Positions 16,320-46,551 of a stretch of DNA of 64,000 nt are shown in pieces. How positions within the stretch are numbered: position 1 is the first letter of the stretch; each line of letters opens with the position of its first letter. The stretch is taken from positions 2,904,364 through 2,968,363 of the forward strand of contig CBDCWO010000006.1 of the NCBI GenBank assembly GCA_965223405.1. Direction: 5' to 3'. Position numbers and translations under genes: made by a program. Below the pieces are notes generated by a model that did not search any database, was not told the DNA's origin, and worked only from the letters and a program-made list of their open reading frames with translations. The DNA comes from Saprospiraceae bacterium (lineage in GTDB: Bacteria > Bacteroidota > Bacteroidia > Chitinophagales > Saprospiraceae).

Positions 16320-18536
16320 ATGAATTTGATCACTACATATAGCCGGAATTTCATCAAAGTCCTGTTTTGGATATTCCTTCTGGGTCTTTCGAAGATCAGC
16401 TTATCTCAGGATGGGTTACTTTCTGTGGAAATTTCAGAATCGACTGACGATGTAACTGCCATAGTATCTCTACAGGCAGAAAGTAAGATATTGGGGATGC
16501 AATTTAGCGTAAATTGGGATCCCGTAGTATTACAATACGCCAATATAGAATTGCTTCAGAATTTTAATCAAAGACCAGAATCTACCGTTGGCATTAGTGC
16601 TCCCAAAGGAGTATTATCCTTTCTGTGGATCGGACCTGTACTAGAAAATGACAATCCGTTCGATTTTACCAATTCCCTTCCTCTTTTTAAACTGACTTTT
16701 AAAAAACGGATTCCGGTTGCTCCTTTTGTATTTGTAAATGACGATCCCACCATCATTGAAATCTTTAACTATGCCGATCAGATTTTAGCCATTCAGACAG
16801 CAACCAATCTGGAAGGAATTGCCATTACCAACGGTAAAGTTTATTGGGATGAAGACGATAATTGCATTAATAACGACGAAACTAATTTGGCCAATAAGAT
16901 TATCGAACTCATCAATCTGGAAAATGGACAAATTCAGAGTAGAATTACCAATGAAAATGGAGAGTTCTGGTTTCCGGTAAGTGATGGAAATTTTGCGATT
17001 ACCGCTATCAACCCACATCAATTGTGGGCACCCTGTGAAGACACCCTTTTCTTTGCTGTAGAGAATCTTTCTGCTCCTTTTATCAACCTGGGATTGAAAC
17101 CGGCAAAGATATGCCCAAAGCTGGTGATCGAAACACAAATCCCGGTACTACGCAGATGTTTTGAAAATGATGCCTACATCCAATATCGCAATATCGGTAC
17201 GGCCCTGGCCGAAAACATTTCTATTCGACTGAAATTAGATCCGCTACTTACCCTAACTCAATGTCCATTTCCCTATGTGGAGGACGGGGATTCGGTTTAC
17301 ATTCAAATACCAGATCTTGGGATCAATCAGGATTCTACATTTCGCATCAAATTATTGGTTGATTGTGACCATTCCTTCTTGGGGCAAACTCATTGTTTTT
17401 CGGCAACCATACATCCTCACGACGCTTGTGGGGAATTTCAAGGAACCTGGGAAGGAAGCCAACTGGCGGTACGCACTAATTGTGAGAATGATTCGGTAAA
17501 ACTTGAGCTTCGCAATATAGGACCCGGTCCGATGAATACCCAAACCCGGTTTATCGTTACTGAGGATATTGTGATATTCCTTAAAGAGGATGTTCAATTG
17601 GATTTTCAGGAAGATTTCCGTCTCGATATTCCGGCTACTGGTAAAACGTACCGCTTGCACGCCGTTCAGGAAACAGGATATCCCGGTCCACAAGATGTAG
17701 TGGCATTTGTGGAAGGATGCGGTCAGGGTAATCCCATCAGTAAAGGGATTCCTACCCAATTTCAAGATTATGACGATGTCACCTATTACGCATTGGAATG
17801 TGTGGAAAATAAAGGATCATTTGATCCCAATGACAAATCAGCTATCCCCAAAGGTCTAGGTGAAAACCATGAAATTGATTCCATCACTAAACTGGAATAT
17901 TTAATCCGGTTTCAAAATATAGGAACAGACACCGCTTTTTCAGTCATCATTTTGGACACACTGGATCCAAATTTGGATACCTACACACTGCAGGTCGGAC
18001 CCAGTTCCCATCAATTCAGCTTCGATGTTAATGAGTCCGGAATATTGAGAATTATTTTCGATCAAATCAATTTGGCAGACAGTAATACCAACGAATTGGA
18101 ATCGCATGGTTTCATCAAAGTTTCCATAAGAGTAAGATCTGATGCAGAGATTGGAACGATTATTAATAACCGCTCTGCCATCTATTTTGATTTCAACGAC
18201 CCAATTCTGACCAACACGGTTCAACATCAAATCGCAGAACCTTTGATAGACATCCGATCATTTATTTCGATTAATAAGACAAACCCTATTCAAGTGGTCA
18301 TTGTCCCAAATCCGGTAGTAAATGACAGTTATTTACGCCTCAAAGGTGATGAGTCGAACGATTGGCAAAACTACAGGTTCGGAATCTATGACATGCAAGG
18401 TAGAATGGTTCAACATTTCCGGGCGGATGGGAGCCACACCAGATATGTACCCTTAAGTGGAATGCGAGGGATTTATTTTATCAAGGTCTATCGCGACCGT
18501 AAAATACAAGGGGTAGGAAAGATGATCATACCCTGA
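16320..18536 (+). CDS. Secreted multi-domain cell-surface protein with a T9SS type-A C-terminal sorting domain
   Basis: 738 aa with a signal peptide, the FDPNDK motif region, and a C-terminal block of about 80 aa, VVIVPNPV...GIYFIKVYRDRKIQGVGKMIIP, typical of Por/T9SS sorting tails. Confidence 0.8.
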   Translation: MNLITTYSRNFIKVLFWIFLLGLSKISLSQDGLLSVEISESTDDVTAIVSLQAESKILGMQFSVNWDPVVLQYANIELLQNFNQRPESTVGISAPKGVLSFLWIGPVLENDNPFDFTNSLPLFKLTFKKRIPVAPFVFVNDDPTIIEIFNYADQILAIQTATNLEGIAITNGKVYWDEDDNCINNDETNLANKIIELINLENGQIQSRITNENGEFWFPVSDGNFAITAINPHQLWAPCEDTLFFAVENLSAPFINLGLKPAKICPKLVIETQIPVLRRCFENDAYIQYRNIGTALAENISIRLKLDPLLTLTQCPFPYVEDGDSVYIQIPDLGINQDSTFRIKLLVDCDHSFLGQTHCFSATIHPHDACGEFQGTWEGSQLAVRTNCENDSVKLELRNIGPGPMNTQTRFIVTEDIVIFLKEDVQLDFQEDFRLDIPATGKTYRLHAVQETGYPGPQDVVAFVEGCGQGNPISKGIPTQFQDYDDVTYYALECVENKGSFDPNDKSAIPKGLGENHEIDSITKLEYLIRFQNIGTDTAFSVIILDTLDPNLDTYTLQVGPSSHQFSFDVNESGILRIIFDQINLADSNTNELESHGFIKVSIRVRSDAEIGTIINNRSAIYFDFNDPILTNTVQHQIAEPLIDIRSFISINKTNPIQVVIVPNPVVNDSYLRLKGDESNDWQNYRFGIYDMQGRMVQHFRADGSHTRYVPLSGMRGIYFIKVYRDRKIQGVGKMIIP

Positions 18537-18699: not shown

Positions 18700-19010
18700 T
18701 TCAGCAGCAATACATCACAACTTGATATTTAATCAATTAAGTAAAATACTATGCGACCCCTCCAAAGGTGTCTCCACGGAGTCATGACCTCTTGGACACC
18801 AAATAACAGGGATGCCATTCATGAACCCTTTACCGCATTTATCGCGCAGGAATTTCCTTCGATTTAATCCATTAAATCTTCAGAAAATAGCCTTATTGGT
18901 GAAATTTTCTACGGATTCTCCGCCGGCCAAAGTCTCGTACGGATATTTGTACCAGAGCTTATAGCCCCGGAGGGCGGGCTGGTACTTCGCAATAATTCAG
19001 GTTTAAACCA
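18700..19010 (-). pseudogene. Possible decayed gene remnant
   Basis: No ORF of 60 aa or more occurs in about 650 bp. Minus-strand frames still read protein-like stretches (KLWYKYPYETLAGGESVENFTNKAIF; GFMNGIPVIWCPRGHDSVETPLEGSHS) that are interrupted by stops and frame changes. Confidence 0.3.
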
Positions 19011-19306
19011 ACCCAATGAAGAATAACCTGCTTCCTTGGCCAAAATCTGTGCTAATTTTTACTAATGACGAAAATATAGTAACTTTAATATGGAATTTTG
19101 GTCCTAACTACAATCTCGGATTCTTGTGTATCAGGTACTGAAAAATATAACGCTCAAAATGGAATCCCACCAGTCAAATTATTCTTGCTGTAGAGCCCGT
19201 CGCATAACTCACCATGTTTATGGTCTCTTCTTTGAAAAAACCACATCGCTACGCCCAAAAAGCGCAATTACAATTTTAAACATAATGTAATCCTTAACCA
19301 AATACC

Positions 19307-20164
19307 ATGAAGAAATTAGCCATTCTGATCTTTCTAGTCAATACAATAATAATCTGTGATGCGCAAATTCAAAAAATGGATATTTATAGTGATGGCACCT
19401 TATTAAACGCTTATATATACCAAACTGAGGGTACTGGGCAGCCGACTTTGATATGGTGTCATGGCAATCCGGGAATGAAAGAAAATGGAGAATCAAAATT
19501 TGCGGTGGCATTAAACAAACTTGGAATAAATGTTTTAAGATTTAACTACCGGGGATTATGGGATACTCCGGGGATTTACAAATTAAGCAACTCTATCGAG
19601 GACCTGGCCAATGTTTTAGATCATATCTATAAGCCTGAAATAATTACAAAACATAAGATAGATACTAATCAGATCTTTGTAGGTGGATATAGCTTTGGAA
19701 CTCATGTTGTTTTGGTTTCAGCCCTTGATAATCAAAGGATAAAAAATATTTACTGTCAGGGGATCGCAGATCACAACTATTTTTACTTTACACCCAAATC
19801 CTTGGACCCCAATAATGTGAAGCAGTGGAGAGAATTGCTTCCTTCTGTTAATGAGGTACTCTGGGGATCTGAACCAAAATTTGATGAAATATATAATCCT
19901 TTCAATACGGACATCCTTAAGAACACTTATGAGTTTGACTTTGTATCGAATGCGGAAAAACTTAAAGACAAGAAAATATTTATTGTCGTAGGACTAAATG
20001 ACTTGACCGTTCCCATTGAATTTAATTTTTTACCATTTCACAGAAAACTTGTGAAAATGAACCATGAAAACTACACCTATAAAATATTGGAGTCAGATCA
20101 TTATTTCAGAAATGTCAGTGTAGGTGAAAGAGCTCAATTGATTGCTGATTGGATCAATAACTAA
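19307..20164 (+). CDS. Alpha/beta hydrolase, secreted
   Basis: 285 aa with a signal peptide, an HGNPG oxyanion region, and the nucleophile elbow GGYSFGT (GxSxG). Confidence 0.75.
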   Translation: MKKLAILIFLVNTIIICDAQIQKMDIYSDGTLLNAYIYQTEGTGQPTLIWCHGNPGMKENGESKFAVALNKLGINVLRFNYRGLWDTPGIYKLSNSIEDLANVLDHIYKPEIITKHKIDTNQIFVGGYSFGTHVVLVSALDNQRIKNIYCQGIADHNYFYFTPKSLDPNNVKQWRELLPSVNEVLWGSEPKFDEIYNPFNTDILKNTYEFDFVSNAEKLKDKKIFIVVGLNDLTVPIEFNFLPFHRKLVKMNHENYTYKILESDHYFRNVSVGERAQLIADWINN

Positions 20165-20251
20165 TCCAGTTTGGCTGCGCCGCCAATTTAGGGAGTACCT
20201 CAATTAATTGCTTAACCGACCTTATTTTATGAATCTCATAACCGTATAACG

Positions 20252-20746
20252 ATGAAACCACTTAGATCGATTGGTGTAATATCAATTATTCTATTCTTAG
20301 TCAATTGTACCGCCTACGACTCAGTCGACTTAATGGAACGCAACAAAAAACTTGTCATGAAAATGAATGCTGAAGTGTGGAACAAGGGAAATATTAAAGC
20401 GATTGAAGATTATTTTTCAGTGGACTTTGTACAGCATTTTATACCCGATAATTCTGAGCGTAAAGGCCTCGGTCCATTACGTCAGCATATTATAGATCAT
20501 AGGAAAGCTTTTCCCGATTGGAAAGAAGAAATAATCCATATAGTTGCAGAAAATAATCTTGTGGTTATTCATTTTAAATCGTCGGGAACCAATCTTGGAG
20601 ATTGGATGGGTAAACCCGCAACTGGTAATTACATCAACATTAATGAGTTTTCAATCTTGAGAATTAAAGATGGGAAGATCGTAGAACAATGGTTAATGCC
20701 GGACTTGTTTAATTTGATGGATCAACTTTACAACGAGAAAGAATAA
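20252..20746 (+). CDS. SnoaL-like/ester-cyclase (NTF2-fold) lipoprotein
   Basis: 164 aa with a lipobox LVNC. The EVWNKGN...DYFSVDFVQH pattern is typical of SnoaL-like predicted ester cyclases. Confidence 0.75.
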   Translation: MKPLRSIGVISIILFLVNCTAYDSVDLMERNKKLVMKMNAEVWNKGNIKAIEDYFSVDFVQHFIPDNSERKGLGPLRQHIIDHRKAFPDWKEEIIHIVAENNLVVIHFKSSGTNLGDWMGKPATGNYININEFSILRIKDGKIVEQWLMPDLFNLMDQLYNEKE

Positions 20747-20822
20747 AATTTCTACCATATGTCTAAATTTCTTCCCATAACGTCTTTTTTTTAAAATCAA
20801 AGGTTTAGTAAGTATAGTAATT

Positions 20823-21395
20823 ATGGTTTTGATACTCATCTTGAGTTGTCAATCAGATAATAGTCATCATCTTGAAGAACTACTAAAGGACTACATCCGG
20901 GCCAGCAACAATCATGATATTGAAGCCATGGAAAAAATGACCCATGATAGCATCATCTGGATACTGGGCGCTTATACTTTGAAAGGAAAAGAAGCAGCAC
21001 TGAGCCCTAATTGGTATGATAAAGGGGTTGGAACCTCATTAGAATACCACGTAACCCGTATACAGGAGGATACCATTGAATGTGAGTTTTTTGAGCGAAG
21101 TCCAATTATTTCATCGGTCGGCATGGAGTGTATCAAACAATTTCCCCGGTTTATTTTCCAAAATGGGAAACTAATTAAAAAAGAACCGTGGAAAATATCG
21201 TCCGATCTGGCCAAACTGAACCAACTTTCTGCACCAAAAAGAAAATGGATAAGAGAAAATTACCCGGATGTAATAAAGCAATTAATAGATGCTAATGGAA
21301 ATTTCATTTTTTCAGAGGAAAATGGAAAACTAATGGCGCAAATGTCCAAAGAATGGGAAAAAGCAATGCAATCCCCCAAAAGATCTAACAAATAA
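20823..21395 (+). CDS. Hypothetical NTF2-like lipoprotein
   Basis: 190-aa ORF with a short lipobox LILSC. The N-terminal YIRASNNHDIEAMEKM resembles the SnoaL/NTF2 start. Weak call. Confidence 0.5.
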   Translation: MVLILILSCQSDNSHHLEELLKDYIRASNNHDIEAMEKMTHDSIIWILGAYTLKGKEAALSPNWYDKGVGTSLEYHVTRIQEDTIECEFFERSPIISSVGMECIKQFPRFIFQNGKLIKKEPWKISSDLAKLNQLSAPKRKWIRENYPDVIKQLIDANGNFIFSEENGKLMAQMSKEWEKAMQSPKRSNK

Positions 21396-21492
21396 ATAAA
21401 GCAGCTATAAGTATTACTACGTCTGCCTGCCGCTTTAGGTTGATTCTCGCGATGCCGAAAGGTTAAACATCTGCGATGTTCTTTCTTTGGGG

Positions 21493-21534
21493 GCCTGCTC
21501 GTGATTGTAGTCCAGGAGAGCCATAGACTTTGAT
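21493..21534 (+). repeat. 42-bp conserved block, copy A (relic-associated repeat)
   Basis: gcctgctcgtgattgtagtccaggagagccatagactttgat is 34/42 identical to 24386-24427. One frame of both copies reads PARD[CD]SP.E..TLI.GK. Confidence 0.5.
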
Positions 21535-21537
21535 CGG

Positions 21538-21780
21538 AAAGATTTGAAAACCCCGAATGCCGAAGTGCCGGCAAACACCATTATTATACACGGCGAGTAG
21601 GTTTTGGACATAGCAGTGGTTGATTCTTCCTTATTCGGAACACCGTCCCCTGGACCTGTGGGGGCCTACCAATTCTCCAATAAATCTGTGTTGGTACGCT
21701 TTTATTGCATGAATGCCAGAACCTAATGGAAAATGATCTTTGAAAAAATTGACTTGAGTGCGGGAGTAAATTCAAGTATT
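21538..21780 (+). pseudogene. Fragment of a paralog of the 24671-26464 gene (choice-of-anchor-J-like domain) with in-frame stops
   Basis: It aligns at the DNA level to 25790-26033. Translation DLKTPNAEVPANTIIIHGE*VLDIAVVDSSLFGTPSPGPVGAYQFSNKSVLVRFYCMNART*WKMIFEKIDLSAGVNSSI compares with EGFETTPNAAVPANTIILRNEVFDMSVVDASVFGSAPGPVGAYQLSNKSVLVRFFNMAAGTTSEMIFEKIDLSTRVNSRI. Confidence 0.65.
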
Positions 21781-21896
21781 TTTCACTTTTGGGTAACGTT
21801 TTTAGCGGTCTACTACACGTATTGATAATTCAACTATAGAAGTATTTAATGACCCCTGCAGGTGTAATAGTGCGCTTTGCAAATAAACTAACTATC

Positions 21897-23546
21897 ATGG
21901 CTAAGAAAAAAGAAAGCAAATCACAAAAAGCAGATCTCGAATGGTTTCGATCTTCGGATGACGTACACAAGACCACCATCAGAGGGCTGGTGGACGGCCC
22001 TAGTAAATATGCCTTTGGCGAGAAAGAAATTACCTATTCAATAGTAGATGGAATACCAATTTTTGAAGGAGATATAGCCATAGGACTAGGCAGTTCAGAA
22101 GTTCCTGGGGATGTTCCGGAAGGTGTAGAGTTCGCTGTGGCTATTACCGGACAACAATACCGATGGCCAAATGGGGTTGTCGCTTATACTATTCACTCAA
22201 ATCTTCCAAACAAGGCTAGGGTTACAAATGCAATTGCTGAAATTCAAGCAAATACAAGTATTCGATTTGTCAAAAGAACTTCTGCCAATGCAATGGACTT
22301 TCCCAATTATATAGAGTTTTTTGCCGGTTCGGGCTGCTGGTCGTATGTGGGTATGAGGAGAGGAAAGCAACAGATTTCTTTAGCAGCAGGATGTGGAAAT
22401 GGTTCTACAATCCACGAAATACTTCACGCACTTGGTATGTGGCATGAACAGAGCAGAGAGGATAGAGATAAATTCGTGACCATCAACTGGGATAATATTC
22501 AGGATGGCCGAGAGCACAACTTTAATCAACATATAGTGGATGGTACAGACATTGGCCTTTACGACTATGGATCAATTATGCATTATGGACGATTTGCTTT
22601 TAGTAAAAATGGACTTCCTACCATAGTGCCAAAGGGAGGAAATGCCATCGGACAGCGCAGTGGAATGAGTAATTTTGACATCGCAGGAATCGAAGAATTG
22701 TATCCAGGTACCTGGTTGCAGGGTGCATTTACAATTCAGCAGAAGTCCAATCATCGTTACCTCGATGCTTATGAATCGTCAAATCGGGATTTTGAGGTTG
22801 TTACTCGGAAATCTCAAAATAATAACACACAAAGGTGGGAGTTAACACCAGTTGGCAGGGTATATTCTATTCGACAGGCAAGCACTGGGAGATTTCTTGA
22901 TGCTTACGGGTCTGCATCAAAAGACTTTTCAGCTGTGACGCGAAATGCTCAGAATAATGATACACAGCTTTGGATCGTTACTCATCTCGATAATACACTT
23001 GGTCAATATACTATTCAGCAACTCAATAACGGTCGGTTTCTAGATGCTCATGTTTTTGCCGGAAAAGACTTTGATGTTGTTACCCGAGCTGCCCAATTTA
23101 ATGACACCCAAAATTGGTCACTTATACCCCTCGGTAACAATCGTTTTCACGTCAAACAAATGATCAACAATCAATTTCTTGATGCATGGGAGTCGGCACC
23201 TAAGGATTTCAGAGCCGTGACTAGAACAGCGCAAAACAATGAAAGCCAGGAGTGGATTTTTGTGCCAAAAGGGGCGGTTTACACTATCCAACAGAAGAGT
23301 GGGCTAAGATTTTTAGATGCTCATGAAATTGCTTCTCGAGATTGGAGAGCCGTCACAAGGGGGCCTCAAAACAATGCGACACAGAGATGGGTAATCATGC
23401 CTTACAATGGTACCTCTTTTACTATACAACAAGCGAGTAACGGTAGGTATCTGGACGCTCACGAACATTCCGGTCAGGATTTCAGAAGTGTTACCAGGCC
23501 TAGACAAAATAATAACACCCAGCGATGGATAATCAAGAAAGTATAA
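21897..23546 (+). CDS. Astacin-family (M12A) zinc metalloprotease fused to six ricin-B-type lectin repeats
   Basis: The zinc site HEILHALGMWHEQSREDRD matches HExxHxxGxxHE, with a Met-turn SIMHY. This is followed by six repeats of about 45 aa, each with FLDA and a Q/T-x-W motif (TQRWEL, TQLWIV, TQNWSL, SQEWIF, TQRWVI, TQRWII), consistent with two beta-trefoils. The start is taken at MAKKKESK. The ORF track extends to 21849. Confidence 0.85.
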   Translation: MAKKKESKSQKADLEWFRSSDDVHKTTIRGLVDGPSKYAFGEKEITYSIVDGIPIFEGDIAIGLGSSEVPGDVPEGVEFAVAITGQQYRWPNGVVAYTIHSNLPNKARVTNAIAEIQANTSIRFVKRTSANAMDFPNYIEFFAGSGCWSYVGMRRGKQQISLAAGCGNGSTIHEILHALGMWHEQSREDRDKFVTINWDNIQDGREHNFNQHIVDGTDIGLYDYGSIMHYGRFAFSKNGLPTIVPKGGNAIGQRSGMSNFDIAGIEELYPGTWLQGAFTIQQKSNHRYLDAYESSNRDFEVVTRKSQNNNTQRWELTPVGRVYSIRQASTGRFLDAYGSASKDFSAVTRNAQNNDTQLWIVTHLDNTLGQYTIQQLNNGRFLDAHVFAGKDFDVVTRAAQFNDTQNWSLIPLGNNRFHVKQMINNQFLDAWESAPKDFRAVTRTAQNNESQEWIFVPKGAVYTIQQKSGLRFLDAHEIASRDWRAVTRGPQNNATQRWVIMPYNGTSFTIQQASNGRYLDAHEHSGQDFRSVTRPRQNNNTQRWIIKKV

Positions 23547-23615
23547 CTTGGTGTATACCGAAAATAATATCCTTTGTTAGTCGAAATGAGTTTATATTTT
23601 GCATAAATAGGATAG

Positions 23616-24038
23616 ATGTTGTTATATTCTACAATTATTTATAGCGTTACCTCTGATTTTGATTGGATGATGGAAACTAAAAGGGAACATAAACCTCCCC
23701 TTCTAATCGAGGGGGAACTGTTGATTGAGAAAAGCAGCGCGATTGGAAAATCTGAAGTAAAGATAAGAATCTTGGATATTACACATATTGACAAGAAATC
23801 GATTGTACTGGCTGAGTCAATGGAAGAGCTTATGATTGATAAGGAGCTGACGAAGATACCCTACAAGGTTTTTGGTCCTCCACCAGATCCTTCGTGTAAC
23901 TATATCGTAGTTGCAACTATTTCAGTTGAAACAGAAAAAGGAATTAAAAAGACCCTATACCGTACAACTCAATCAATTCCTGTATTCAGGGGAGGTGAAT
24001 CAAAAAACATTGAAATTCCACTTACGAAAATCGATTAA
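23616..24038 (+). CDS. Small protein with YbaY/YscW-like domain pattern (tentative)
   Basis: 140-aa ORF (likely start MMETK at 23667). VKIRILDITHIDKKSIVLAESME...IPYKVFGPPPDPSCNYIVVATISVE...LYRTTQSIPV resembles the YbaY-type pattern. No signal peptide or lipobox. Confidence 0.45.
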   Translation: MLLYSTIIYSVTSDFDWMMETKREHKPPLLIEGELLIEKSSAIGKSEVKIRILDITHIDKKSIVLAESMEELMIDKELTKIPYKVFGPPPDPSCNYIVVATISVETEKGIKKTLYRTTQSIPVFRGGESKNIEIPLTKID

Positions 24039-24385
24039 TAGCACATCTAAATTGAATTAAAATAGGTCCTTCATAGTTGTGGCGAGAGTCTCCTTAATTG
24101 CATCAGTATTTTTATTTGCCAGAATCGATATTGAAAATTTATTTATTTACCCAAACCTATTTCGTATTTCTACTTTGAACTAAGAAGATCCAATCGGTAT
24201 TTTCACTTCATTCCACCTAGGTGCTATGTCAAAGTTTGAATGACGAGTTGGATTAGAGTGAAGTTTAACTTGGGCTAGGTCCGCGACTCTTATGGAGGAG
24301 CTAACTGCCATTATGCCTGCGTTTTTCGCTCCGTAAAGTCTCCCAAGTCCACGAAAGTCGCAGACTCAAAAGAGTGCCTATTCGA

Positions 24386-24427
24386 GCCTGCTCGTGATGA
24401 TAGTCCACCAGAGTCACGGACCTTGAT
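24386..24427 (+). repeat. 42-bp conserved block, copy B
   Basis: gcctgctcgtgatgatagtccaccagagtcacggaccttgat. See 21493-21534. Confidence 0.5.
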
Positions 24428-24670
24428 AATGGGAAAAATCTCCTTCGTTGGTTCTGTTATTTTGTTGTATCCATCGACCTGAGAAATCCAACTCAATGAG
24501 GTAAAAAACCGCGTGAAGTTTCGACAACTAATATATTATTATTACATTTAATAAGTTAATAGCTCATGATCAGGTTTATATTCTGGATTATGGCATTATT
24601 ATTTTTCGTACTACCATTAAAAAAAGTTTTATGTAAAAAATATCTTTGCACGAAAAACTCTGAAAAACCA

Positions 24671-26464
24671 ATGTTGAAAAAAATTATTTTTACAATAATA
24701 TGTCTTACCACTTTTGGAACCACTTTACTCACCGCTCAGGCTACCAGGAAAGTGATGGTGGAAGAATTTACCAATGCATCCTGTGCCCCATGTGCCGCCC
24801 AAAATCCGACTTTTGACGCATTAATGTTGGCCAATAAGAGTAAAGTTACTCTGTTGAAATATCAAGTTTGGTGGCCCGGATCTGACCCCATGTATGATCA
24901 AAACACGGCAGATGTAAGAGAAAGAACAACTACATATTATGGGGTAAACGCTGTGCCATATGGTATAGTTGATGGTATAAATACAGGTGTTGCTGGTAAT
25001 GTCGACCAAACCCTTATTGACAATGCAGCTGCCATTTCAACCCCTCTTGAAATCAAGTTGGATCATAATCTTACCGTTGCTTTGGATTCCATAAAAATCA
25101 GTTGCACCATCAAAAATGTTGATGTTTCGGCATTTAATCCGGGTAATACGGTTGTGCAAATAGCCATAGTGGAGACCATTAATTTCCCCAGTCCTCCCGG
25201 TACTAATACTGAACAGGACTTTATTCAGGTTATGCGTAAAATGCTACCCAATGCACTGGGTAGTTCCTTGCCGGCAATACCTGCTGGCGATTCAGTAACA
25301 TTCAGTTTTTGTGATTCTATCCCAGACTATATCTATGAATATGGAAAAATAGGCGTTGTTGCTTTTGTCCAGAACAATACGACCAAAGTAGTTTACCAAT
25401 CTGAGCTGAGTGAGCCTAAACTTTTACCATTTCCAAATGATGATGTAGCCGTAGTGAATAGTTCAATTGAGCCTCTGGGGTTTTGTGATTACAACTTCGA
25501 ACCGAGATTAACGATCACTAATGTGAGTGCGACCAACATTACACAGATTGATGCCAGTTACCGTGTTAATGGAGGAATACCGGTATCCATGTTATATACC
25601 AATACACTAACTCCTGCAAATTCTAATGAAATCATTTTTCCTCAGGTAAATCTACCTGGTGGAACTAACATAGTTACTTATGATGTATTAGTAAATGGTC
25701 ATCCCGATCTCAATCGACACAACAATGATCTTGGCCCGCATGAATATCATCTATTGCAAGTTACTCCGGTATTTTCCGGAACATTATCCGAGGGATTTGA
25801 AACAACACCAAATGCCGCAGTGCCTGCAAACACCATTATTTTACGCAATGAGGTTTTCGATATGAGTGTGGTTGATGCTTCGGTCTTTGGTTCAGCACCA
25901 GGTCCAGTGGGAGCCTACCAGTTATCCAACAAGTCTGTGTTGGTGCGCTTTTTTAACATGGCTGCCGGAACCACATCGGAAATGATTTTTGAAAAAATTG
26001 ACTTAAGTACAAGGGTGAATTCGAGAATTACCTTCGACCATGCCTATCGCTCCTATCAAGGAGAAAATGATCGCTTGCAAATTATGGTATCACCTGATTG
26101 TGGAGCCAGTTGGGACATCGTTTATGATGAACAAGGAAGTAGTTTGGCCACACTTCCACCTAGCACGGTCCAATTCATACCAAGCGCTCAGGACTGGACT
26201 TCAGACACCATTGATATTTCTCAATACGATAATGCACCTGAATTGACGATGCGTTTGGTGGCAACTTCTGCTTTTGGAAACAACCTCTTTTTTGACAACC
26301 TTCAGATTTCCAGCGATTCGCTTCCGGCTACGGGCTCAGCTATTCCTACCGTGAGTCAATGGGGGCTTATCCTATTAGTGCTTGGATTTCTAATTTTATC
26401 GGTGGTTGCGATTCATAATCAACAAAGAGCATTATCGCGAATCGAAGATCCGGTTAGACCTTAG
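24671..26464 (+). CDS. Secreted protein: thioredoxin-like/Omp28-related N-terminal region, choice-of-anchor-J-like domain, and IPTL-CTERM-like C-terminal anchor
   Basis: The start is taken at MLKKIIFTIICLTTFGTTLLTAQ (signal peptide). The ORF track starts at 24566. It has EEFTNASCAPCAAQNP, a C-terminal domain GFETTP...RLQIMVSPDCGASW...LFFDNLQISS, and the final IPTVSQWGLILLVLGFLILSVVAIHNQQR. Confidence 0.75.
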   Translation: MLKKIIFTIICLTTFGTTLLTAQATRKVMVEEFTNASCAPCAAQNPTFDALMLANKSKVTLLKYQVWWPGSDPMYDQNTADVRERTTTYYGVNAVPYGIVDGINTGVAGNVDQTLIDNAAAISTPLEIKLDHNLTVALDSIKISCTIKNVDVSAFNPGNTVVQIAIVETINFPSPPGTNTEQDFIQVMRKMLPNALGSSLPAIPAGDSVTFSFCDSIPDYIYEYGKIGVVAFVQNNTTKVVYQSELSEPKLLPFPNDDVAVVNSSIEPLGFCDYNFEPRLTITNVSATNITQIDASYRVNGGIPVSMLYTNTLTPANSNEIIFPQVNLPGGTNIVTYDVLVNGHPDLNRHNNDLGPHEYHLLQVTPVFSGTLSEGFETTPNAAVPANTIILRNEVFDMSVVDASVFGSAPGPVGAYQLSNKSVLVRFFNMAAGTTSEMIFEKIDLSTRVNSRITFDHAYRSYQGENDRLQIMVSPDCGASWDIVYDEQGSSLATLPPSTVQFIPSAQDWTSDTIDISQYDNAPELTMRLVATSAFGNNLFFDNLQISSDSLPATGSAIPTVSQWGLILLVLGFLILSVVAIHNQQRALSRIEDPVRP

Positions 26465-26758
26465 TCCAAGCCTGACTACTTGCAAGGAAAACGGATAACC
26501 ATATAATATGAGCAACACTTAATCGGTTCATATAAGGAAGGCCGCACGGTATTGTAGCTTTTCCGATACCTTGTATGTTGGCTTTTCTGACCGCATGGAC
26601 CATGTAAGTTGCGATTAGAATTATCGCTAATTGCAGCTGAATTCACTAATTGGAATCGGTTACAATTTACTATCTTTCGGTAAGGTCGCAGAATCTTATC
26701 TGATTTTCCATCGCGAACCATACATGAAAGGTAGGCACATTTTGAAAAACTATAAATC

Positions 26759-27745
26759 ATGATATCTAAGTCAAAGAACCAATTAATTTTCATCTTACTC
26801 ACCATGGGATTTTTTTTATTTCCCACCTTTGGAATTACCCAACAAAGTGCAGAGCTTTCAAAAGCAAAATCTTCAGAGTGGGGGCCAGATGATCAGAAGG
26901 GCGCAAAGAATCGAATCACTCCTGAAAAGGTAATTGAAGCAGCAAACCTGATTACTGAAGGAAAGATTTATGAACTTGGTCAAACTTATGAAGAGAGCAT
27001 GCCGACAGGAGGCAGAACTTATACCCTTCATCTGATTAGCCCCCCTCCCATTGATTCAACAAACCAAAACAGATTGGTTGGAAACCTTGATTTTCATGCT
27101 GGAGAATTGGGTCAAATAGGTACTCAATTTGATGCCTTAGGTCATGTTGGTTATAGAAAAGAAACGGAAGATTATTATTACAATGGTTTCACAGGAACTG
27201 AATTGTACTCATCCAAAGGATTAAGGAAATTAGGGGTGGAAAACGCCGGTCCTTTTTTTACAAGGGGTGTTTTAATAGATGTTGCCGGATTTAAAGAAGT
27301 TGAGAGGTTAGAAGCTGGATACGAGATCACTGTGAATGACTTAAAAGGGTCATTACAAAAACAGCAAATTGAGATCAAAGATGGAGACGTAGTTTTGATT
27401 CGTACCGGCCATAGCAAATTATGGAAAGTTGATAATGAGGCTTATTATAGTTGGGCTGGAGGAGAACCTGGAATCGGCACATTGGCTGGTCAATGGTTGG
27501 CTAACCAGAAAGTGGTAATAATAGGTGCTGATAATTTTGGGGTGGAAGTAGTGCCTTTTGCCAAAGCAGACACTAATTGGCCAGTACATTTAATGATGCT
27601 AAAAGAAAATGGAATATATTTATTGGAAAGTCTAAACCTGGAAGAATTATCTAGAGATGCGGTGTATGAATTTACATTTGTGTTTTCTCCACTTCCAATT
27701 AAAGGAGCGACCGGATCGCCGGGAAATCCGATTGCAATAAAGTGA
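26759..27745 (+). CDS. Cyclase-family protein (kynurenine-formamidase-like fold), secreted
   Basis: 328 aa with a signal peptide and the IGTQFDALGHVG motif (the HxGTHxDxPxH-like region of the putative cyclase family). Confidence 0.75.
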   Translation: MISKSKNQLIFILLTMGFFLFPTFGITQQSAELSKAKSSEWGPDDQKGAKNRITPEKVIEAANLITEGKIYELGQTYEESMPTGGRTYTLHLISPPPIDSTNQNRLVGNLDFHAGELGQIGTQFDALGHVGYRKETEDYYYNGFTGTELYSSKGLRKLGVENAGPFFTRGVLIDVAGFKEVERLEAGYEITVNDLKGSLQKQQIEIKDGDVVLIRTGHSKLWKVDNEAYYSWAGGEPGIGTLAGQWLANQKVVIIGADNFGVEVVPFAKADTNWPVHLMMLKENGIYLLESLNLEELSRDAVYEFTFVFSPLPIKGATGSPGNPIAIK

Positions 27746-28985: not shown

Positions 28986-29941
28986 TTAATTAACCCAAGT
29001 TGCGAACTATAGATTGATAGACCTAAAAAAGGTGTAAGCTAACACAAAAAGGAATATTTTGATCAAAAAGCCTTGGGGCGTGACTGCATGGATTTTAGCA
29101 GGCATCATTTGAGCTATTTCACTAAAAGTGGTTTCAATACGTTTTCTTTTATTTTCTATTAAATAATCTGTATAGGGTTTATGTTGTCTTTTGAGGTTGG
29201 ATTTTCTTTGTACCAGTAAATGAATTTGGTCGCATTCCATCAACAAATCTTCGTACTGATAATCGTTGTAAATAGCATCTGCATACAAGGTGCTATCAAC
29301 AGGTAAATCCAAATTCATAGATTTAAAAGCGGTTATGTCGGAGAAAGAACCAGCCGCAATATAATAGTCCACTGGTATTCCATTTGCATCCACTACCAAT
29401 TGGACTTTAAAACCATAAAAATACTCCCTTTTAGAAACACATTTGCCACGATAAGCTTTGTTTTTCAATAACTTACAGTTTGGGATTCGAATGTTGTGAC
29501 ACACTTTAACCGGAAATGAATCAATGATGTATTCACTACTTATATTTAGATTTTTGATCCTTTGTCCAAGACCTCGAAATAGACTCCATAATAAAAATTC
29601 TAATCCATGAAGTCTTCTATTAAATCCGCTTTTATCAATAAATACAACTCCATGATGTGACCTCATATAACCTCTGGCTTTGACCATGTTGCATCCAAAA
29701 TATCTGGATGCTATAATTGCGGTTGTTAAAATTTCAGCATCAGTAGTTTTTCTTAATGATTCATCTTTTTTTCTTGAAATCTTGACAAAATCATCAATAA
29801 AGCAATAAATTGTAATTACATAATTTTCCATAATGGGTGTAGATTTTGGTGGGATGAGACCTCCTTAATTTACACCATTATGGATTCTTTAGCAATATGT
29901 ATTATCATTTATTTTAATACGTCGCAACTTGGGTTAATTAA
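28986..29941 (-). mobile_element. IS982-family insertion sequence, copy A (956 bp)
   Basis: Perfect 20-bp TIRs ttaattaacccaagttgcga / tcgcaacttgggttaattaa, flanked by a 3-bp direct repeat TAA (28983-28985 and 29942-29944). By eye the sequence is identical to copy B at 55712-56667. Confidence 0.85.
29007..29831 (-). CDS. IS982-family DDE transposase
   Basis: 274 aa. The N-terminus YVITIYCFIDDFVKI has the IS982 pattern. The protein is identical to the product of 55733-56557. Confidence 0.85.
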   Translation of the reverse strand: MENYVITIYCFIDDFVKISRKKDESLRKTTDAEILTTAIIASRYFGCNMVKARGYMRSHHGVVFIDKSGFNRRLHGLEFLLWSLFRGLGQRIKNLNISSEYIIDSFPVKVCHNIRIPNCKLLKNKAYRGKCVSKREYFYGFKVQLVVDANGIPVDYYIAAGSFSDITAFKSMNLDLPVDSTLYADAIYNDYQYEDLLMECDQIHLLVQRKSNLKRQHKPYTDYLIENKRKRIETTFSEIAQMMPAKIHAVTPQGFLIKIFLFVLAYTFFRSINL

Positions 29942-37719: not shown

Positions 37720-38421
37720 TCAAATGTATCTTTCCCGCTTTTGTAAATTTATCAGAGCACCTAGGATAAAAACTACCGTTCCCACGCTTAAGAAAATCCG
37801 GCTTTTCCAAACGATTTGCTTCCAGGCCAGCTGACTGAATCCCCTGCGTGGGTCATAGGGATTTAAAAATACGTTCCAAAAAGTATCTTCCAGGAACTCA
37901 CTGAATATGGTCAATCCAACTCCGAGTATTACCATAACAACCGCCGTTGCATTACCATTTTTTATCCAGGTGGAAATCAAAAAAGCCAAACTACCCAGGA
38001 AGCAGATGGGAAACAACAATTGGATCGCTACTGAAACTGGATTTATTGGATACAACAACCAGGAACCAAGAGCAGCGAAAAGTATGAGTAAAATAAATAT
38101 TTGAGTAAATATCAGTACTAATCGAACCAGCCAAACTTTATAACGATAATCCGGAATACCAAAGTGGATTTCCAACATACGCGCATCCTCATCCCGTTGA
38201 ATCCCAAATACCACGGGATAAAAAATCAATAGAATGGCTGGAAAAAAAGTTAAAGAATAGATTGACCCAATATTGATTTCATCGTTTTCAAAAACACTTA
38301 TCACCATAAAAAATAGATAAAAAGCCAATGCGGCTACCAAAAACCAAAGAAAGCGTCCGGCAAAGATGACTTTCAAGTTATACTTGATCAAACTGCGGAT
38401 ATTTGTAATTGTATTGCGCAT
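37720..38421 (-). CDS. ABC-2-type permease-like 6-TM membrane protein, translationally coupled to the RND-ABC fusion gene
   Basis: 233-aa polytopic ORF. Its ATG overlaps the TAA of the upstream gene (TAATG at 38419-38423). Confidence 0.7.
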   Translation of the reverse strand: MRNTITNIRSLIKYNLKVIFAGRFLWFLVAALAFYLFFMVISVFENDEINIGSIYSLTFFPAILLIFYPVVFGIQRDEDARMLEIHFGIPDYRYKVWLVRLVLIFTQIFILLILFAALGSWLLYPINPVSVAIQLLFPICFLGSLAFLISTWIKNGNATAVVMVILGVGLTIFSEFLEDTFWNVFLNPYDPRRGFSQLAWKQIVWKSRIFLSVGTVVFILGALINLQKRERYI

Positions 38422-41400
38422 TAGTTTTTAATATTCTTTAATAAACACAAATAGGCATCCTCCAAAACGGGATCAACGGAAATGGCCGATTCCTGGGGTT
38501 TATGTAGGGAAATACATCGGACCCGTATGTGATCACCTTCACGCAGGTGATTAACTACAACCTCTTCTGATTCAACCGTGGCAAAGTCCACTGCCGGGAT
38601 GATATATTCCCAAACCAGTCCTTGCGCCAGACCAAGCATATCCTGTGGTGAACCCTGGTATTTTACAGCACCATGATCCAACACGGCCAATTGATTGCAA
38701 GAACTGGCGATATCTTCGATGATATGAGTAGAAAACAGGACAATCCGATCACGGCTTAATTGTACCAGGAGGTTTCTGAAACGAATACGTTCGCGAGGAT
38801 CCAATCCGGCTGTCGGTTCATCGACGATTAATATTCGAGGCAAATGAAGTAATATTTGAGCGATACCAATACGTTGTTTCATTCCACCGGAAAAGGAACC
38901 GATTTTTTCATGTTTGCGATCCAACATATTTACAGAATCCAACACATAGAGTAATCGTTCCTCCCTTTTATTGCGGTCATGCAATCCTTTGAGGATGGCT
39001 TGATAATCAAGAAAAGCCCAGGCCGTCATATTGTCATAACTTCCAAATGCCTGAGGTAGATACCCAATTAATCCCTGAAGTTCTTCACGTTTCTCCTGCG
39101 TATCAATACCATTGATCCAGATCTTGCCATAACTTTGTTCGAAGATTCCAGAGATGATACGCATTAAAGTTGATTTCCCGGCTCCATTGGGTCCTAGCAG
39201 CCCATACATGCCGGTACCAATATTCAATGACACGGTATCAAGGGCCTTAAATGGGATTTTACGTCTACCAAGCAGTGGGATGCTGATAATCGAGCGATAA
39301 TAAAATCGTCTCAGCTTTCCCTTTATCCTTTCAACCTTTAGCTGTTTACGGTAGAAATATGCCGACGATTTATAAACAATCAATACCAAATACCAAACTA
39401 AACCCCAAAAAATGGTATATCCCCATTCCTCCCATTTCTGATTCATTTGAAAAAGTAATACCAGCGGACTGGCCCAAAATAGGAGTTCTCCCAAAATCAT
39501 TGGGATCCATTTCTTTTTATCAGAATAAACTAAATTAAAGGCTAACTTGAACGGTTGCCATATTCCCAATAATAGAAGATAAATGCCTATTCCAATCAGG
39601 AGTATCCAAAAGCCATCCTGCAAATAAGAAAATGCAAACCATCCTAAAAAGATTAGAAGAGGAATTTTCCAAATAAACTCACTTAACAATGCACCCCAGC
39701 GAATCTTACCTTCTTCGGATTGAAGAACAAAAGATGGTGTTTTGCTGTTTGACCACTCTCTTGAAAACCGACCGGGTCGATTGTAAATCTTTACCAGGTT
39801 TTGGACCTTAATGTATAATGCTTCATCGGTAGAGATCAGCCTGGTCTGAGCACGTTTTAGACTCGCTAAAATAAAATATGTAATAGCCGGAATCAGGAAG
39901 ACCAATAACAGGATATCCAGCAATTGCCATAGAAATGAAGTTACTCTGAAATAGATCAGTAACCCTCCACAGACGAAAAGGATGACATTCAATATTTTTA
40001 TCCATAGAGATAAACCTCTAAACCAATTAATGGTATTTTCTAACCCCAAATAGACTGTGGGGATCACGATTAAAGTAAGTACTGTTCCCAAAGCCAAACC
40101 TCCAATCACAGTTATTGCAAAAGGTGCTCCAATTACACTGACATATTCTGCTGTACCCAACGCCAAGGGAAACATAGCGGCAATAGTAGTAATAGCTGTA
40201 ATCAGGATTGGGCGTAACCTATGAAGTCCAGCAGTGATTAATGCCCGGATTTTACGATAGCCCTTTCTCCTCAAAGCATTGACATAATCAATCATGATGA
40301 TGCCATTGTTGACAATAACACCCAAAAGGATTAAAAATCCGGTGAGGGTATTGGCGTTGAATAATCCATTTCCGGTGATTGTTAAGGCTAATAGTGACCC
40401 TGTAGCGGCTAGTGGCACGGAAAACATCAATACAAAAGGTGCTGACAAAGATTCAAACACTGAAGCCAGGATAATGAAAATAAGGAGAATGGCTGCTCCT
40501 GCCAGTGCTTTAAAATCTTTGATCTGATCCTGGGCTGCTTCCATTTCGATAGCAATTCCCGGAGGGACCGGGTAGTTTGAGATTAGCAACTTTATGCTTT
40601 CCTGGTGCGCTTCCAGAAGTTCTTTTGACTGATTGGCTTCTTGAGAGCGAGTGTAAGAAATCTGTATTTGTTTCTGTTGGTTGATACGCCTGATATCATC
40701 ATAACTTTCACCTGTACGGATAGCAGATAAGGTGGACATTTCATGAGCTCCACCTTCTTGATCAATAACTTCCAACTTTTTGAGATCTGACATGGTTTTG
40801 GGTTGGAATCCTGATTGAAGGTCTTCATTATCGCGTATGATAATATTGTATTCATCGTCAACATATCTGAACTTGGTGTCCGCAGGTGCCTCTTGTTCGA
40901 AATTTCTTAATGCGATAGCAATATTTTCCGGAGTGACTTTATTTCTGGCCAGGGTTAAGGGGTCAAAGGCCAGCAATACTTCAGGTCGGTTGCCACGAGT
41001 GCTAAGATTAGCATTCCGGGTATCGTCCAGGTTTTGGATATAATATAGAAGATCCTGGGCAACTCTCTGCAACAATCCATAGTCCTCTCCTTTCACGACA
41101 ATTTTTTCCTGATTTTCACCAAAACCCATTAGTTGTCCCAGAGCATCCAATCCACCTAGGCCTTGAGAACCCTCACCGGAATTACTGGAAGCAAAACTAA
41201 TTCGAGCACCTCCGATGCGGCGGGTGAGATCTTCAATTTCCGATTTGATATCATTATAGGATCGATTATCTATTTTTTCAAAATCTTCTTTAAGCTTAAT
41301 ATTTACGACAGCATCTTCCTCCTGGATACGACTGCTGATATCTTGTTTCTCGGCGAGACCCTCTAGTTTAGATTCAATTTCGAGGACAATCTTATCTGTT

Positions 41401-46400: not shown

Positions 46401-46551
46401 GAATTTCGATAAAAAGCCGGGGGGAGTTCAGATCCGGAAACAAGTCTACCCCTAATCGGGAGTATGATATGTACCCCAAAATGCATATTCCGAGTATTGC
46501 CATCAGAATGGTTACGGGAAAATTAACGGCAAATTGGATCAGTTTTTTCAT
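43432..46551 (-). CDS. RND (AcrB-type) efflux permease
   Basis: 1039 aa with 12-TM topology and two large periplasmic loops. TM4 is GAGMLVDNAIVVLENI and TM10 is MLVGIAVNDAIILVDRI. The start overlaps the adaptor gene stop (ATGA at 46548-46551). Confidence 0.9.
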   Translation of the reverse strand: MKKLIQFAVNFPVTILMAILGICILGYISYSRLGVDLFPDLNSPRLFIEIHAGEKAPEEIEKQYVEQIEALSMRQQGVTQVASVTRIGSAQLTIEYNWNKDMDEAFLDLQKAINDFNQSGELDRVNVTQFDPNSAPIMLVGISHSSITDLNELRKISQNYISNELMRLEGVAQVTLSGQEEHEVVIKPDLHKLKAFKLTVDDITQKIQSFNQNVSGGTVEDLGLRYTVKGVGMLETETDFNNLIIGYNESSEHDQATAENLNVPENEADINRTPIYLQDIAETKFTNKEPKNIVRINGHRCIGLSIFKENRFNTVKAVEEISEAFDVIESALPGYHFEIISNQGTFIKTAVDEVQETALIGILLAIIVLFIFLHRFGTTLIIGIAIPISIIATFTLMYFNGLTINIMTLGGLALGAGMLVDNAIVVLENIFRNHESGADTKSAVITGTAEVGGAITASTLTTIIVFLPVVYLQDAAGELFKDQAWTVAFSLLSSLFVAIFVIPMLYHRFYRKRNAPAKAKSFQLRRYGGFLQGMLRIKWAIIFLAALLMAGALYLYSSIGTEFMPRSTTKKFRVNVQMPEGTVLARTAATISNVEGIIQQALDEDLKFVYSHIGPKTELEGGDRSSLFQGEHTAIIEVALTDSTRLGTQNVISALDEITAGISGVKFSFSPEVSSLNSILSMEESPLVVEIKGDNLDIIEDLTQAVRNSLMDMPELQNVRTSIEQGAPEIEVLFDRLKLGLYNLDMSNVIAQIQDQLQGKTAGKIEQSGEMIDIDLMMPDIGLDDFKNITINGGDKEYRLHEIATLNPSIAPREIHRRNQARIGKVYAQTDKQVPLEFVANQIRERTSTISLPPNYSISVVGDEARRQQSLQSLTFSLILSIVLVYMVMASQFESLLHPFIILFTIPLAVVGTIFTFYWLNTPLNIMAIIGIIMLVGIAVNDAIILVDRINQLKRGGLSRNNAIVLAGQQRIRPILMTSITTILALLPLTFGFGESAALRAPMAWAVIGGLVTSTLLTLVVIPCVYSAIDFGGNNNNDK

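Follow-up and report, generated by a model that had tools for sequence, protein, structure and literature searches.

The window analyzed here is the whole 64,000-nucleotide (nt) stretch of DNA from a Saprospiraceae bacterium (GenBank assembly GCA_965223405.1, contig CBDCWO010000006.1, positions 2,904,364 to 2,968,363), and its plus strand carries the adjacent pair of genes that is the subject of this study. The first gene (21897..23546; 549 amino acids, aa, plus stop) encodes a pro-astacin zinc protease followed by two ricin-type beta-trefoils and has no signal peptide. The second (23670..24038; 122 aa) encodes a small protein of the predicted YscW/YbaY fold, likewise without a signal. The astacin and YscW-like genes are partners, and the pairing recurs across many bacterial phyla.

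The extent of the protease gene was assigned from Pfam domains, the start used by homologues, and DNA homology. Read from its first ATG, the open reading frame (ORF) spans 21849..23546 (+) and encodes 565 aa. The conserved start is the ATG at 21897 (MAKKKESKSQ...); it is used by the closest homologues (P0004-P0008), and DNA homology with relatives opens at 21882-21927, in agreement with it. From this start, the N-terminal region (aa 1-88, 21897..22160, +) consists of a disordered Lys/Ser-rich tip, a conserved EWFRSSDDV block, and a prosegment that contains the putative zinc-blocking switch FEGD (aa 56-59, 22062-22073, +). An AlphaFold model of the 549-aa protein reached a predicted local distance difference test (pLDDT) score of 77, with values below 50 at aa 1-14 and strands at aa 23-56. 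F56, E57, G58, D59, and I60 were unchanged across 20 diverse homologues. Among 82 related loci, the residue after FEG was Asp in 64 and Cys in 16 (the remaining two were not readable). Because Asp and Cys are both zinc ligands, this pattern matches the expectation for a latency switch, and D59 of the window protein is predicted to contact the zinc. In the FEGC form, a cysteine switch takes the place of the astacin aspartate switch; its 16 loci (L018, L022, L029, L045, and others) fall mainly within a clade that bears a 77-aa domain, described below.

The catalytic domain (22161..22703, +) matched Pfam Astacin (M12A; PF01400) with an E value of 3e-53, and among proteins of solved structure in the PDB its sequence matched meprin beta with an E value of 5e-42 and astacin with one of 3e-34. 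An earlier note on this DNA, made from the letters and translated ORFs alone, had described a textbook astacin zinc site and Met-turn, and both hold. The zinc-binding motif HEILHALGMWHE (aa 173-184, 22413-22448, +) follows the HExxHxxGxxHE pattern, with H173, E174, H177, G180, H183, and E184 invariant in the 20 homologues. The Met-turn SIMHY (aa 226-230, 22572-22586, +) is also invariant and of the SxMHY type, with a tyrosine zinc ligand. Both motifs were intact in 83 of 85 related ORFs. Only two cysteines occur in the 549 aa, C147 (22335-22337, +) and C166 (22392-22394, +), both within the catalytic domain. They are invariant among homologues and are sited in GCWSYVG ... AGCG, and we take their positions to be those of the Cys64-Cys84 disulfide of astacin. 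Since these disulfide-position cysteines are invariant, an oxidizing working environment is suggested. As judged from these features, the enzyme is intact and of the zymogen type.

The remainder of the protein is a lectin half that contains no cysteine and was modeled as all-beta. Pfam detected RicinB_lectin_2 (PF14200; E 1e-26, 93 bits, four stretches) and Ricin_B_lectin (PF00652; E 4e-10, 40 bits, two stretches) on the ORF, with both scores above their cut-offs. Six in-register repeats of about 42 residues, with pairwise identities of 43 to 64%, fill aa 275-546 and form two trefoils of three QxW repeats each, as the earlier note had proposed: the first at aa 275-409 (22719..23123, +; pLDDT mostly 80 to 90) and the second at aa 414-546 (23136..23534, +). 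Every repeat has (F/Y)LDA, D(F/W), VTR, and QNNxTQxW and ends in (T/S)QxW. The Asp of LDA, the aromatic residue, and the N/Q residues are retained in all six, which are predicted carbohydrate sites. Together, the lectin tail and the disulfide-position cysteines indicate that the protease probably works outside the cytoplasm.

By hydropathy and Pfam, the astacin-ricin protein has no signal peptide, transmembrane segment, lipobox, or type IX secretion system (T9SS) tail; its most hydrophobic 19-residue stretch reaches a mean Kyte-Doolittle value of only 1.04. Such absence could be an artefact of a wrong start codon or a frameshift in an ordinary Sec- or T9SS-secreted protease, as an ATG does exist upstream at 21849 and astacins are described as secreted, with signal peptides (PMC9848320). 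However, the nearest in-frame stop lies only 19 codons upstream of ATG 21897, the stop-to-stop frame begins at 21840, and the 16 additional codons from ATG 21849 encode MTPAGVIVRFANKLTI, which is not signal peptide-like; an upstream start with a signal peptide is thus absent. Nor did Pfam find the C-terminal sorting domain Por_Secre_tail in the protein. This domain is present on the product of the window gene at 16320..18536, which marks the genome as that of a T9SS-using member of the Bacteroidota. Moreover, the hydrophilic N terminus that the earlier note had pointed out is common to the family: in 83 full-length astacin-ricin homologues, the top 10-residue hydropathy value within the first 40 residues had a median of 0.78 and rose to at most 1.47, and about 80 loci from species-representative genomes were all without a hydrophobic leader before the prosegment. 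Signals were judged by the Kyte-Doolittle heuristic rather than by a trained predictor, with a uniform outcome. We consider an artefact scarcely credible. Proteins with the same double-ricin tail behind other proteases, among them trypsin-like, subtilisin-type, papain-like, and matrixin enzymes, were likewise signal-less. As far as sequence can tell, the missing signal characterizes the family as a whole and does not stem from a single gene call, and since no Sec, Tat, lipoprotein, or T9SS signal is present, the protein should begin its existence in the cytoplasm.

The small ORF (23616..24038, +) encodes 140 aa when read from its first ATG, 69 nt past the astacin stop. The start common to its homologues is M19, at 23670, which gives 122 aa and a gap of 123 nt. 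Eleven close homologues were found, mostly of 122 aa and starting at the Met that matches 23670. The intergenic spacer (23547..23669, +) is conserved with relatives, and one blastn match runs through it. Its 3' part (23616-23669), in frame with the small gene, corresponds to a decayed lipoprotein signal, MLLYSTIIYSVTSDFDWM, whose counterpart in relatives reads ...LLLITLLLVGC or FFLLLIFVGC. Three relatives of the small protein extend upstream to such a hydrophobic run with a lipobox-like cysteine (e.g., FFLLLIFVGC); the window, L001, and L003 retain just a decayed remnant of the leader, either interrupted by a stop or without the cysteine. In-frame remnants were seen at 23616-23669 of the window, L002:7914-8000, and L003:7956-8000, and the signal is intact in P0128 and P0131. 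This distribution suggests repeated loss or gain of partner export.

The family assignment of the small protein is weak from the single sequence and solid by profile and fold. Searched alone, the window protein scored 13.7 bits (E 0.08) against PF09619, under the gathering cut-off of 22.6. A profile built from eleven small-protein sequences retrieved 56 representatives among 1.84 billion proteins, and all 43 of the aligned family members matched PF09619 (best E 2e-29). The AlphaFold model was a beta-sandwich of the pilotin-type fold, with a core pLDDT of 80 to 90. By this profile and this model, the partner is a member of the YscW/YbaY family, and the YbaY/YscW-like pattern in the earlier note was correctly read. 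So was the absence of a signal sequence: the window partner has no cysteine and no hydrophobic leader, and the only trace of a lipoprotein signal is the decayed relic. Across the family, no more than 12 codons precede the domain in at least 35 of 67 partner ORFs, a plausible signal occurs in only 3 to 5 of the 67, and about 60 have none. The partner would thus share the compartment of the enzyme.

To follow the pair beyond the window, 185,579 species-representative genomes were scanned with astacin-specific patterns, and at least 561 loci were confirmed, mostly from soil and water bacteria. Counts out of 80 given here refer to the best 80 of these loci. They come from Bacteroidota, Acidobacteriota, Nitrospirota, Verrucomicrobiota, Chloroflexota, Pseudomonadota, Gemmatimonadota, Actinomycetota, Cyanobacteriota, Planctomycetota, and Binatia. 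The closest relatives of the window locus are Saprospiraceae and Bacteroidia metagenome-assembled genomes. Carriers also include Robertkochia solimangrovi CL23, Halomonas maura CECT 5298, Alicycliphilus denitrificans Ylb10, and Kribbella and Streptomyces strains; the named strains are probably cultured isolates.

The partner was searched for with a local hidden Markov model of the YscW-like subfamily in the 6 kb on either side of each astacin. In about 66 of the 80 loci, spanning at least 11 phyla, a YscW-like ORF lay no more than about 1.7 kb from a signal-less LegP-like astacin, and the model had no match elsewhere in the 6-kb flanks. Co-occurrence of the two genes, which the earlier note had proposed to check, is therefore present and wider than expected. 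The partner gene is downstream in the clade of the window and in cyanobacteria, upstream in Niabella, Udaeobacter, Chloroflexia, and betaproteobacteria, and divergently oriented in Streptomyces; overlap between the stop of one gene and the start of the other is frequent. All homologues of the window small ORF with a readable flank lie just downstream of an astacin-double-ricin gene (L001, L002/L006, L003/L004, L005, and L094), and P0128 and P0131 probably share contigs with P0002 and P0009, respectively, as their longest contigs are of identical length (6750 and 5305 nt). A metagenome scan with the narrow partner alignment returned one locus. In the reverse direction, two YscW-like proteins chosen regardless of context (P0132 and P0145) also adjoin astacins. 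The astacin and its partner co-diverge (Mantel r = 0.61, a value reached in 0 of 2000 permutations), and the partner evolves faster, with a mean p-distance of 0.73 versus 0.43 for the astacin. Clustering of the ORFs at these loci revealed no further conserved neighbor or transporter, and no family of neighboring ORFs occurred in more than five loci.

Linkage, a shared compartment, co-divergence, and fast partner evolution fit a cognate binding protein. We favor, at a probability of roughly 0.45, a reading in which the locus encodes a latent, lectin-targeted protease and a cognate binding partner that serves as its guardian or inhibitor, with non-classical release. The first gene would yield a latent astacin-family zinc endopeptidase in which Asp59 of the prosegment blocks the zinc, and the six-site ricin-type lectin half would tether the enzyme to glycans. 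Lacking an export signal, the protease would be made and stored in the cytoplasm, where the 122-aa YscW-fold beta-sandwich may bind it and keep it harmless to the producer cell. Release would be non-classical, by lysis, by ingestion by a grazer, or through an unlinked exporter; as no exporter is linked to the pair, these routes are the simplest inference. Once outside the cytoplasm, the cysteine pair could oxidize, the prosegment would be removed, and the lectin would hold the protease on glycosylated targets.

Several points weigh against this reading. The YscW-fold proteins characterized so far are secretin pilotins, not inhibitors, and an inhibitor looks redundant given that a prosegment is already present. 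The lipoprotein-type signals on a few close relatives of the partner would take these proteins to a different compartment, except where the protease is exported as well. The most conserved partner residues, EDVSxxDA and TTxSYPV, occur across PF09619 generally and so give no pointer to a protease-specific reactive loop. Finally, we infer physical binding, inhibition, the extracellular site, and the release route from sequence. A secretin-pilotin role for the partner is implausible, because most partners are without a lipoprotein signal and the pair occurs in Actinomycetota, which, as monoderms, are expected to be without outer-membrane secretins.

An alternative role for the YscW-like protein is that of a chaperone or export adaptor, which would bind a short astacin segment, such as the N-terminal EFRSSxEV block, much as pilotins bind a secretin peptide, and either keep the astacin export-competent or pass it to a non-classical route. 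The extreme N terminus of the astacin is indeed conserved beyond what a prosegment needs, the Legionella homologue LegP is exported by a type II secretion system (T2SS) and also translocated by a type IV secretion system (T4SS) (PMC6617341), and at one related locus (L055) an ATP-grasp protein and a YscW-like domain share a single frame. This fusion may, however, be due to an erroneous frameshift in a genome assembled from metagenome data, and no secretion component is conserved beside the pair. The carrier phyla have very different envelopes, monoderms included, so that no one machine fits, and a partner that evolves this fast is more in line with inhibitors or immunity proteins. We consider an adaptor function unlikely.

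The lack of signals on both proteins would also suit an intracellular conflict or cell-death module, in which phage attack or stress would set the protease free within the producer and the partner would be its antitoxin-like brake. Variable genomic contexts of the module are in keeping with this idea, as is the placement of a sister family with a double-ricin tail (P0117) among CHAT, TIR-SIR2, and nSTAND genes. In contrast, PADLOC returned nothing significant (the astacin matched no model, and the partner gave just a weak Csn2 hit, E 0.002, 15.5 bits), and no defense genes adjoin the pair in the window. It is not obvious what a lectin with six sites would bind in the cytoplasm, and invariant cysteines at disulfide positions speak for an oxidizing site of action. 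On balance, a conflict module appears rather improbable.

Comparison of the related loci indicates that these astacins have exchangeable C-terminal halves. At 30 of the 80 loci, a gene for an ATP-grasp peptide maturase is located between the astacin and the YscW-like gene. The maturase has a Pfam MvdD pre-ATP-grasp domain and scored 205 bits with NCBIfam TIGR04187, under the cut-off of that model. In all 30 of these loci, the astacin ends in 130 to 190 aa of tandem repeats rich in Thr, Lys, Asp, and Glu (for example, TIKEVRKDPISDP six times, PETIKER eight times, or KKLRDDxGG seven times), after which a conserved LPFxLATPHH block follows. The repeats look like graspetide cores fused to a full-size enzyme. 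Loci of this type, with signal-less astacins, include L030:6001-8500 (Robertkochia solimangrovi), L044, L059, L083, and 26 others. At L055:5277-6689, a single frame without a break covers both the maturase and the YscW-like domain, as the result either of a true fusion or of an erroneous frameshift.

The ATP-grasp maturases and astacin repeats at these 30 loci raise the question of whether the window pair itself belongs to a graspetide-type pathway, that is, one resembling those for ribosomally synthesized and posttranslationally modified peptides, with the astacin as carrier or leader peptidase. The tail of the window astacin is a lectin rather than a set of repeats, however, and the 64-kb window contains no ATP-grasp gene, nor do the closest related loci (L001 and L003-L006). 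A graspetide pathway is effectively ruled out for the window locus.

A second alternative tail is the 77-aa domain, which is fused to the astacin C terminus and encoded anew as a free-standing gene just downstream in 17 of the 80 loci (including L017, L018, L025, L036, L043, and L088). Its pattern is MWNNxKTV...GW.K.KTG..DGVTN, it had no Pfam or NCBIfam match, and it is absent from the window locus. An acidic APPP-repeat ORF often follows the free-standing gene. Taking these tails together with the preferred reading of a guarded, stored protease, one may picture many phyla storing signal-less latent astacins guarded by a new class of YscW-fold inhibitors and fitted with swappable C-terminal "warheads" (the six-site lectin, graspetide-crosslinked repeats, or the 77-aa domain), as toxins or digestive effectors that are freed when the cell is lysed or eaten. 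This wider picture we regard as doubtful.

The same double-ricin tail also occurs behind other N-terminal parts. At L090:3576-5641, two ORFs lie ahead of a matrixin (M10)-double-ricin gene: one of 142 aa, signal-less, which overlaps it, and one of 335 aa that had no Pfam match. The 142-aa ORF was considered as a YscW-like partner and rejected, as it is not YscW-like by profile; this may be an analogous protease-partner pair from a different family. At L092:1-9884 and L093, the signal-less 627-aa protein P0117 carries this double-ricin tail. Pfam lists ricin domains only for the protein, although its N terminus presumably resembles a subtilisin I9-type propeptide. The P0117 gene lies between a CHAT-peptidase gene and TIR-SIR2 and nSTAND NTPase genes, a neighborhood of the conflict-system type.

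For the window pair, nucleotide homology to L001, L003, L005, and L006 (73 to 76%) runs from 21882-21927 to 23550-24039, spacer included. The flanks are unrelated among the window and these four loci. Homology thus is restricted to 21882-24039, as expected from the two-gene module that the earlier note had described. The same note had reported relics of another gene family on both sides, which is true of one side only. Upstream lies a pseudogene fragment of an Omp28-like paralogue (21533..21780, +), broken by frameshifts and stops, which forms the left border of the module. It aligned by blastn (75% over 250 nt) to 25786-26029 of the gene at 24566..26464, and in tblastx SPGPVGAYQFSNKSVLVRF... 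of the fragment aligned with APGPVGAYQLSNKSVLVRF... of that gene. The downstream paralogue (24566..26464) is itself intact. A 42-nt repeat, found by repeat search and blastn, flanks the pair as well, with a left copy at 21493..21534 and a right copy at 24386..24427 that are 81% identical. Since the pair lies between an intact gene and a decayed paralogue copy, the arrangement fits either an insertion into a small paralogue array or a rearrangement of that array. The GC content of the module was not distinct from its surroundings. Rfam found no RNA family in 19000-27000, the repeat copies included. A promoter and terminator scan stayed at or below chance, and the single terminator-like hairpin falls inside the small ORF.

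Several other features of the window were recorded. A short minus-strand ORF (24311-24496) overlies the right copy of the 42-nt repeat. The intact paralogue at 24566-26464 (+) encodes an Omp28-like/choice-of-anchor-J protein, whose C terminus has a sub-threshold match to IPTL-CTERM/"midcut-by-XrtH" sorting signals; this weak IPTL-CTERM-like end contrasts with the T9SS tails otherwise found in the genome. A DDE transposase gene (Pfam DDE_Tnp_1_3; 29007-29831, -), about 5 kb downstream, was the sole mobile-element gene seen nearby. At 38421-43112 (-), a single 1563-aa ORF combines a complete AcrB-type resistance-nodulation-division (RND) transporter (ACR_tran, aa 4-1022) with an ATP-binding cassette (ABC) transporter ATPase domain (aa 1292-1435); it is either an unusual fusion or the product of a frameshift or an overlooked stop. 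Another RND gene comes next, at 43432-46551.

Literature searches found no paper that describes the pairing of an astacin with a YscW-like partner and, for bacterial astacins with a ricin lectin domain, only unrelated tick and mussel work. The loci define a large, mostly free-living bacterial astacin family that is without signal peptides and has its own dedicated partner gene. With them comes the question of how such a lectin-bearing protease, its cysteines at disulfide positions, would exit the cell. If the partner inhibits, the YscW fold gains a second function beside secretin piloting. If the reading of a stored, guarded protease is true, the pair would be the bacterial equivalent of the cytoplasmic chimerolectins of fungi, and its partner would represent the first family of protein inhibitors for bacterial astacins. 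The related loci further suggest graspetide-type repeats built into a full-size enzyme with the ATP-grasp gene adjacent, an arrangement not described in the literature searched; no paper was found for graspetide with astacin or for ATP-grasp with YbaY.

Among characterized proteins, the nearest to the window enzyme is LegP (Lpg2999) of Legionella pneumophila. Proteins annotated as "M12 family metallopeptidase" belong here as well. With its prosegment and catalytic domain, the window protein scored 272.5 bits with the NCBIfam LegP model (NF045530), against a curated cut-off of 300, and matched 231 positions (13-243 of 244). By this score, it is a close relative of LegP and not an equivalog. The HExxH motif is at residue 166 in LegP (PMC11696984) and at 173 in the window protein. 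LegP has no lectin tail, whereas the window protein has two trefoils, and LegP is exported through T2SS and T4SS in a pathogen (PMC6617341), whereas no secretion system is linked to the window pair. Lpg3000, encoded beside LegP, is described with a helical insertion element, and the description gives no sign of a YscW-like neighbor (PMC11696984). With animal astacins, meprins, and the bacterial flavastacin and myroilysin, the window enzyme shares the zinc site, the Met-turn, the FxGD-type switch, and the cysteine positions of one disulfide. Judged by sequence features, it is a complete astacin save for the signal peptide. A review holds that astacins of all phyla have a signal peptide in their minimal architecture and that bacterial ones are few and host-associated (PMC9848320); a signal-less family with at least 561 mostly free-living loci contradicts both points. 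Astacins are also described as obligately secreted and as sporadically acquired by bacteria from animal hosts (PMC9848320).

The partner, for its part, differs from the secretin pilotins YscW, ExsB, and AspS and from the lipoprotein YbaY, all of PF09619. The window partner and most partners at related loci have no lipoprotein signal, the linkage is to a protease and not to a secretin, and the pair is also present in monoderms. No secretin gene was seen near the pair, either in the window annotation or among the neighbors at related loci. As for the domain layout of the enzyme, Marasmius oreades agglutinin is a fungal cytoplasmic chimera of a ricin-type lectin and a protease, also signal-less, for which an action on a predator after ingestion is assumed. 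To our knowledge, no partner gene is known for the fungal chimerolectins. Given the different kingdom and protease class, we take this analogy as a lead only.

Closer parallels to the two-gene arrangement come from proteases that are co-transcribed with small beta-rich inhibitors. The intracellular metalloprotease protealysin has its inhibitor, emfourin, encoded in the same operon (PMC9505478), and the potempins of Tannerella, also a member of the Bacteroidota, are proteins of 98 to 132 residues that inhibit KLIKK peptidases (PMC9890683). In each of these systems, as in the window, a beta-rich protein of 100 to 140 aa is encoded beside a protease, and some potempins are lipoproteins, as are a few relatives of the window partner. 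We take staphopain and staphostatin to be likewise a protease with an adjacent small beta-rich inhibitor. The folds differ: the window partner is predicted to be a YscW-type sandwich, in contrast to the oligonucleotide/oligosaccharide-binding (OB) or up-and-down barrels or the emfourin fold of the known inhibitors, and the protease family differs too. The locus is a variant of the known arrangement of a protease with a dedicated small partner, here built from a signal-less, lectin-tailed astacin and a YscW-like protein.

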